A stretch of DNA of 64,000 nucleotides from NCBI RefSeq assembly GCF_041248615.1, contig NZ_CP158426.1; one strand, written 5' to 3'. Origin of the DNA: Escherichia coli (lineage in GTDB: Bacteria > Pseudomonadota > Gammaproteobacteria > Enterobacterales > Enterobacteriaceae). The stretch's first letter is position 1, and every line of letters starts with the position of its first letter. The position numbers and the translations under genes were made by a program. This document shows, in pieces, positions 59,089-59,559 of this stretch. The notes under the pieces were generated by a model. That model was not told the DNA's origin. It worked only from the letters and a program-made list of their open reading frames with translations, and ran no database searches.

Positions 59089-59559
59089 ATGAAAACACAA
59101 CGTGGTTATACGCTGATTTAAACGCTGGTCGCGATGCTGATTTTGGTCATGCTAAGCGCAAGTGGACTCTATGGCTGGCAATACTGGCAGCAGTCGCAAC
59201 GGCTATGGCAAACCGCCAGCCAGGCGCGGGACTATTTGCTCTATTTACGTGAAGATGCCAACTGGCATAACCGCGACCACAGTATCAGCGTTATCAGGGA
59301 GGGGACGTTATGGTGCCTTGTGAGTTCCGCTGCTGGGGCCAATACCTGTCATGGCAGTTCACCATTGGTCTTTGTGCCACGCTGGCCCGAAGTCGAAATG
59401 AGCGACCTGACACCTTCGCTTGCTTTCTTTGGCCTGCGCAATACCGCATGGGCCGGGCATATTCGCTTCAAAAACTCAACGGGCGAGTGGTGGCTGGTGG
59501 TTTCGCCGTGGGGAAGACTCCGGCTTTGTCAGCAAGGAGAAACAGAAGGATGCCTGTAA
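59089..59559 (+). pseudogene. ppdA: Prepilin-type protein PpdA with in-frame TAA at codon 11
   Basis: ATG AAA ACA CAA CGT GGT TAT ACG CTG ATT TAA then [10 protein letters not shown]... in frame; the stop replaces the conserved Glu of the GYTLIE pilin leader; the track only reports the downstream 141-aa ORF 59134..59559. Confidence 0.6.

Follow-up and report, generated by a model that had tools for sequence, protein, structure and literature searches.

A premature ochre codon at the conserved prepilin glutamate of ppdA in Escherichia coli NRZ14408: a probable null allele of a minor pilin

The window analyzed here is a stretch of 64,000 nucleotides of Escherichia coli NRZ14408 (NZ_LT599825.1:1056001-1120000). 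The strain is a multidrug-resistant clinical isolate, resistant to carbapenems and colistin. At 59089-60825 the window carries four co-oriented, overlapping genes (overlaps of 10, 4, and 16 nt) directly upstream of recC (start 60838), which is the arrangement that marks the ppdAB-ygdB-ppdC operon. This operon matches Haemophilus influenzae comNOPQ in organization and in its position upstream of recC, and it is reported to be Sxy-induced (PMC12616744). PpdA, PpdC, PpdB, and YgdB are listed as the E. coli equivalents of FimU/GspH, PilV/GspI, PilW/GspJ, and PilX/GspK, respectively, with PpdA also equated with PilH (PMC7248040, Table 1). For the assembly of E. coli type IV pili, these minor pilins work with PpdD, HofBC, HofMNOPQ, and GspO (bioRxiv 10.1101/856302). 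The features of the locus, all on the plus strand, are as follows.

58923-58953, plus strand: intrinsic terminator of thyA, with an 11-bp stem, a 6-nt loop, and a U-run (RNAfold, -16.6 kcal/mol).
59089-59559, plus strand: ppdA, disrupted allele, the same as MG1655 ppdA apart from G to T at 59119; the frame has 156 codons in relatives.
59089-59121, plus strand: residual 10-codon ORF (MKTQRGYTLI), closed by the premature TAA, from sequence reading and translation.
59119-59121, plus strand: premature ochre codon TAA, a G-to-T transversion at 59119 in GAA, the codon for Glu11 (Glu+5 of the mature pilin).
59134-59559, plus strand: 141-aa ORF from Met16, named ppdA by PGAP (WP_223715858.1); the only plausible restart product.
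59550-60113, plus strand: ppdB, PilW/GspJ-class minor pilin, intact (WP_001144315.1, as in K-12; N_methyl match).
60110-60517, plus strand: ygdB (DUF2509), PilX/GspK-class minor pilin, intact (WP_001078380.1; PF10713, 140 bits).
60502-60825, plus strand: ppdC, PilV/GspI-class minor pilin, intact (WP_001276460.1, as in K-12; PF12528 and N_methyl matches).

The thyA terminator separates thyA from the ppdA operon, which therefore needs its own promoter. The consensus terminator scan missed this hairpin and gave two chance hairpins instead. In the thyA-ppdA spacer, a consensus scan for a sigma-70 promoter found none, and a search for the CRP-S core TGCGA-N6-TCGCA gave nothing above chance, the best match (7 of 10) lying inside the thyA terminator. 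The spacer also contains two copies of the heptamer TGCAACG, 10 bp apart, at 58993-58999 and 59003-59009, ~90 bp ahead of the ppdA start. Read another way, the segment that holds both copies, 58992-59009, forms the palindrome TTGCA-N6-TGCAA; it is a candidate regulator-binding site, with no fit to the CRP-S core. On the opposite strand, the site of the stop shows nothing beyond short ORFs and one terminator-like hairpin, all attributable to chance.

From the ppdA start codon (ATG, 59089-59091), the plus strand reads ATG AAA ACA CAA CGT GGT TAT ACG CTG ATT TAA, so that the residual ORF codes for the leader MKTQRG and mature residues 1 to 4 only. Past the TAA, translation of 59089-59559 gives a frame that stays open until the normal stop at 59557-59559. 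Alignment with K-12 MG1655 over 795 bp (58906-59700) identifies the G-to-T change at 59119 (record position 1,115,119), which turns GAA into TAA, as the sole difference. An in-frame TAA at codon 11 of ppdA had been reported in an earlier note on this DNA, and the coordinates, the peptide, and the stop all proved exact by sequence reading, translation, and the MG1655 alignment. The identity of the gene is certain. The K-12 allele (WP_000857051.1), which lies in the same operon with the same flanks, scores 249.6 bits against the PpdA equivalog model NF007800 (cutoff, 158), and the C-terminal 141 aa of the disrupted gene still score 219 bits and cover profile positions 20 to 162. A premature in-frame stop is thus found where orthologues are intact, and the closest relatives retain the ancestral intact state (see below). 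This TAA allele is a genuine nonsense pseudogene allele of ppdA, recent and private to a sub-lineage. It is also an ordinary pseudogene, of a known gene in a known system: it is known in kind and does not constitute a new type of feature.

The position of the stop determines what is lost. In full-length K-12 PpdA, the prepilin (class III signal) motif at residues 1 to 25 is recognized by both PF07963 N_methyl (30 bits; cutoff, 21.2) and TIGR02532 IV_pilin_GFxxxE (24.3 bits; cutoff, 16.3). With TAA rather than GAA at codon 11, this motif is excluded from any product of the window allele; the leader MKTQRG, with the cleavage point before Tyr, is still encoded, but the ORF ends four residues further on. 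The earlier note had taken the replaced residue to be the conserved pilin Glu+5, and a survey of 120 homologues from Escherichia, Citrobacter, Salmonella, Klebsiella, Trabulsiella, Cronobacter, and others agrees: Glu is present in all 117 PpdA homologues that have an N-terminus, down to ~53% identity. This count comprises 116 regular-expression matches and one sequence (P0078) judged by eye. Of the other three homologues, one is a fragment with an incomplete N-terminus, one is an ORF whose call begins at an internal Met, and one has a long N-terminal extension and gave no result in the motif search. In the E. coli major pilin PpdD, the substitution E5A abolishes assembly (bioRxiv 10.1101/2021.04.14.439816). 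The 141-aa product beginning at Met16 matches neither PF07963 nor TIGR02532, and a search against Pfam gave no match; its best 19-aa Kyte-Doolittle window scores 0.83, compared with 2.18 for full-length PpdA. On sequence grounds, no possible product of the allele appears to retain a substrate site for prepilin-peptidase (GspO/PppA) cleavage and N-methylation.

A restart by ribosomes would be possible at Met16, 12 nt beyond the TAA. The resulting 141-aa protein would miss the basic leader with its Gly(-1) cleavage site, both residue 1 and Glu5, and the front half of the alpha1-N helix, the hydrophobic segment of ~20 residues that in type IV pilin-like proteins can anchor in the inner membrane; such a leaderless product would be unable to insert as a bitopic prepilin, to undergo processing and methylation by prepilin peptidase, or to join the minor-pilin tip complex. 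We consider it very probable that Glu11stop is real and that, for want of these elements, the TAA allele is null for PpdA, the FimU/GspH-class minor pilin, and ComN counterpart, of the Sxy-induced pilus/DNA-uptake system. The earlier note had concluded that ppdA is inactivated or, at best, reinitiated without its prepilin leader. That formulation holds, in that Met16 (59134) is the sole route to a restart, it supplies no leader, and both profile matches are lost along with the membrane-grade segment. Loss of PpdA would remove the FimU/GspH-class subunit of the tip/priming complex, and the expected outcome would be that PpdD pilus assembly and DNA uptake are reduced or absent when the system is induced.

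Known counterparts bear on how severe the defect may be. H. influenzae comN, the first gene of comNOPQ and part of the CRP-S/Sxy regulon, resembles ppdA in its orthologous position, in operon layout, and in encoding a prepilin-type minor pilin, although PpdA and ComN share only ~18% sequence identity (PMC12616744). In-frame deletion of comN abolishes H. influenzae DNA uptake, and structural similarity to FimT has been reported (PMC12616744). The comN nulls are engineered in-frame deletions with a phenotype, whereas the window allele is a natural nonsense mutation. PpdA has the same N-terminal GFxxxE-type signal as FimU of Pseudomonas aeruginosa, PilH of Neisseria, and GspH of type II secretion. 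Measured sequence similarity to GspH and FimU is confined to the N-terminus (the GspH model TIGR01708 gives 18.7 bits over residues 4-72 only, against a cutoff of 80), and the class assignment comes from the literature and from gene order. A PDB sequence search with PpdA found no match to a solved structure at E<=1. Among the minor pseudopilins of type II secretion systems, those of the GspH class are the least essential, and by analogy the pilus might be impaired only in part. Under ordinary conditions little cost would be expected, because the system is rarely expressed, and this would explain how the allele persisted long enough for at least two distinguishable genomes to inherit it. The prediction for NRZ14408 is defective piliation and DNA uptake under Sxy induction, which matters to those who use it as a test strain. 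The biological weight is small: what has probably disappeared, in one strain lineage, is a minor pilin belonging to a cryptic type IV pilus/DNA-uptake system.

The remaining genes of the operon had been described in the earlier note as apparently intact. Indeed, the protein accessions of ppdB, ygdB, and ppdC are the same as in close relatives; that of ygdB, for example, is common to TUM9803, JSMCR1, and HS-01. The stop could nonetheless act on them at a distance. In such a polar effect, which would add to the loss of PpdA rather than compete with it, the untranslated ppdA mRNA would be open to Rho, expression of ppdB-ygdB-ppdC would go down, and the operon would be silenced. Unless ribosomes restart, ~430 nt would be left untranslated, and a stretch with more C than G (C/G up to 1.47) lies at 59349-59478; moreover, polarity of a comN insertion is a recognized concern in H. 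influenzae (PMC12616744). However, the remainder of ppdA is G-rich (C/G 0.5-0.9) and poor for Rho loading, and a restart at Met16 would put ribosomes back on the mRNA. The start of ppdB overlaps the ppdA stop by 10 nt, but ppdB has a strong Shine-Dalgarno sequence of its own (AAGGAG, -8.5 kcal/mol), so that translational coupling to ppdA is not required. We regard polarity on the rest of the operon as possible, though somewhat doubtful.

The reading of the allele as null for PpdA would fail if the gene were still alive, that is, if a leaderless 141-aa protein made by restart at Met16 retained some function. The annotation itself leans this way: PGAP/RefSeq places no pseudogene flag on ppdA and treats the 141-aa ORF as a normal CDS for a "prepilin peptidase-dependent protein", a name that it earns because its 219 bits exceed the NF007800 cutoff. 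The globular domain is unchanged, and the Met16 ATG is close enough to the stop to be within reinitiation reach; terminating ribosomes can reinitiate at such a distance, as at the classic restart sites in lacI and T4 rIIB. This ATG has no Shine-Dalgarno sequence (-2.2 kcal/mol), which counts against a restart but does not by itself exclude one, because the native ppdA start is almost without one as well (-1.7 kcal/mol; 59069-59088), compared with the value given above for ppdB and -8.3 kcal/mol for ppdC. A published pilus-expression construct carries a substitute for the ribosome-binding site of ppdA, introduced for better translation (bioRxiv 10.1101/856302), and the near-absence of a Shine-Dalgarno sequence at the native start is consistent with that swap. 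What speaks against function is chiefly the product: the leader, the cleavage site, Glu5, and the transmembrane-grade segment are gone, in contrast to every homologue with an N-terminus, in which the motif is kept. Moreover, unrelated lesions and contig ends lead to an identical 141-aa call, as expected of a by-product of gene calling and not of a conserved isoform. Residual function through a Met16 restart therefore seems to us very unlikely. In practice, the case is a caution about automated annotation: PGAP and other gene callers convert this lesion and at least three further N-terminal ones (see below) into a protein of normal appearance that passes the family cutoff, with no pseudogene flag. 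Surveys of competence or pilus gene presence built on such annotations would therefore miss these knock-outs.

The distribution of the allele places its origin. The census used a 41-base megablast query centered on 59119, in which every 28-base seed spans the variant so that only carriers are returned; an example 31-mer across the T is ACGCTGATTTAAACGCTGGTCGCGATGCTGA. Of 5,426 complete E. coli genomes, 1 carried the T allele, and that one is the source. The G allele, as the positive control, was recovered from 5,409 of the 5,426, with the exact wild-type 41-mer in 5,396. G is the base in TUM9803, JSMCR1, and HS-01, the three complete genomes nearest to the window over 24 kb, and MG1655 also has GAA. 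TUM9803 is the nearest complete relative and has the SNPs at 52673 and 56557 in common with NRZ14408. These two lineage markers are also carried by GCA_020416165.1, a draft assembly in which a 207-kb contig has the same TAA and differs from the window at 2 positions (57233 and 62866) in ~14,900 bases. The TAA postdates the divergence of the NRZ14408 sub-lineage from TUM9803, and at least two distinguishable genomes have inherited it. The event was a G-to-T transversion (Glu11stop) in a small phylogroup-A-like E. coli sub-lineage that includes NRZ14408. The earlier note had raised the prospect that the stop was fixed, and known, in the lineage of the strain. This survives only for a very small sub-lineage, which does have the TAA; TUM9803 and 5,425 other complete genomes are without it, and a lineage-wide fixed allele is ruled out. 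A search for a published description of the ppdA TAA allele found none.

A single nonsense mutation of this kind is unremarkable in number. Between 40000 and 64000, the only other SNP private to NRZ14408 is a synonymous one in an Ile codon of lysA, giving a private SNP rate of ~2 per 24 kb. In this region, 3.5% of the possible coding substitutions create a stop, and the rough neutral expectation is ~0.17 private nonsense SNPs per 64-kb window; on this rough estimate, one such SNP per window is within chance.

Other disruptions of ppdA do occur in public draft and read-level assemblies. The exact 141-aa product (WP_223715858.1; P0121) is present on 77 contigs, drawn from a collection of ~15 billion proteins, and the upstream DNA was inspected for eight of them (L007-L014). 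The lesions that give the 141-aa call are E11stop, Q4stop (CAA to TAA; SRR6040637 [L011] and GCA_019365125.1 [L012]), ATG to ATT at the start codon (SRR5070595), and a 1-bp deletion in codon 13 (SRR19909826); contig ends give it as well. The Q4stop allele lies on two backgrounds, ~99.9% and ~98.8% identical to the window, which implies either independent origin or transfer by recombination. Like the window allele, the other natural N-terminal null alleles have lost the first 15 codons and leave the same 141-aa ORF from Met16. Unlike it, they are different mutations on different backgrounds, and none is found in the 5,426 complete genomes (Q4stop and ATG to ATT, 0 of 5,426 each in seed-restricted queries that return carriers only).

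With at least four different N-terminal lesions in public assemblies, and Q4stop on two backgrounds, it could be argued that ppdA inactivation is recurrent in E. coli and positively selected, for example as an escape from a pilus-dependent phage, immune recognition, or DNA uptake. However, each lesion is extremely rare (E11stop in 1, Q4stop in 0, and ATG to ATT in 0 of 5,426), the exact wild-type 41-mer is kept almost throughout the census, just 77 contigs emerge from ~15 billion proteins, and a single nonsense SNP in a window does not stray far from the neutral expectation. We judge adaptive loss to be highly improbable and set it aside; the scattered lesions in draft assemblies are taken to be rare mutational noise. 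Just as improbable, in our estimate, is that the leaderless 141-aa product is made and has a new role in the cytoplasm or periplasm, or that the TAA itself was selected in the multidrug-resistant sub-lineage. Selection, if true, could mean, for example, the loss of a tip subunit that is used by phage or recognized by the host, or a shutdown of DNA uptake; no result of the analysis spoke for either idea.

The null reading of ppdA also presupposes that the base is correct. A second assembly, GCA_014863425.1, has the same TAA and is identical in sequence to the window, with the gene at the identical coordinate; it is probably the same strain as NRZ14408, so that independent support comes mainly from the one draft assembly, GCA_020416165.1. 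Between NRZ14408 and TUM9803 there are 0 indels over ~59 kb of collinear sequence, and the substitutions number 6 over 52.7 kb plus 9 in a 6.5-kb stretch beside an island (described below). The NRZ14408 assembly is well polished, as the lack of indels against its nearest relative indicates, and errors in long-read consensus sequences usually take forms other than substitutions. The caution in the earlier note that the T might be a sequencing error is therefore answered by the presence of the same T in a sister genome that is distinguishable and was assembled independently. An error in sequencing or assembly, with G as the true base and ppdA intact, could appeal to the uniqueness of the T among the complete genomes, but it is scarcely credible, and we reject it in view of the T in a draft that differs at two other bases, its recurrence in GCA_014863425.1, and the zero indels against TUM9803.

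Elsewhere in the window, a low-GC island (33-41%) at 28733-33520 lies directly after a tRNA-Gly gene (28659-28732) and is absent from TUM9803. Its genes encode a hypothetical protein, a YecR-family lipoprotein, and a 183-aa small serine recombinase. The remaining ~2.5 kb of the island (30995-33520), which ends at IS1B, lacks annotated features and ORFs of >=80 aa, and is dense in short direct and inverted repeats, such as an exact tandem 23-mer at 32207-32252. An Rfam search of the island region returned only the tRNA. Beyond the island, the SNP density relative to TUM9803 in 33506-39999 (9 in 6.5 kb) is ~13 times that in 1-28732 (3 in 28.7 kb), which suggests that 33506-39999 is a recombination tract beside the island and IS1.
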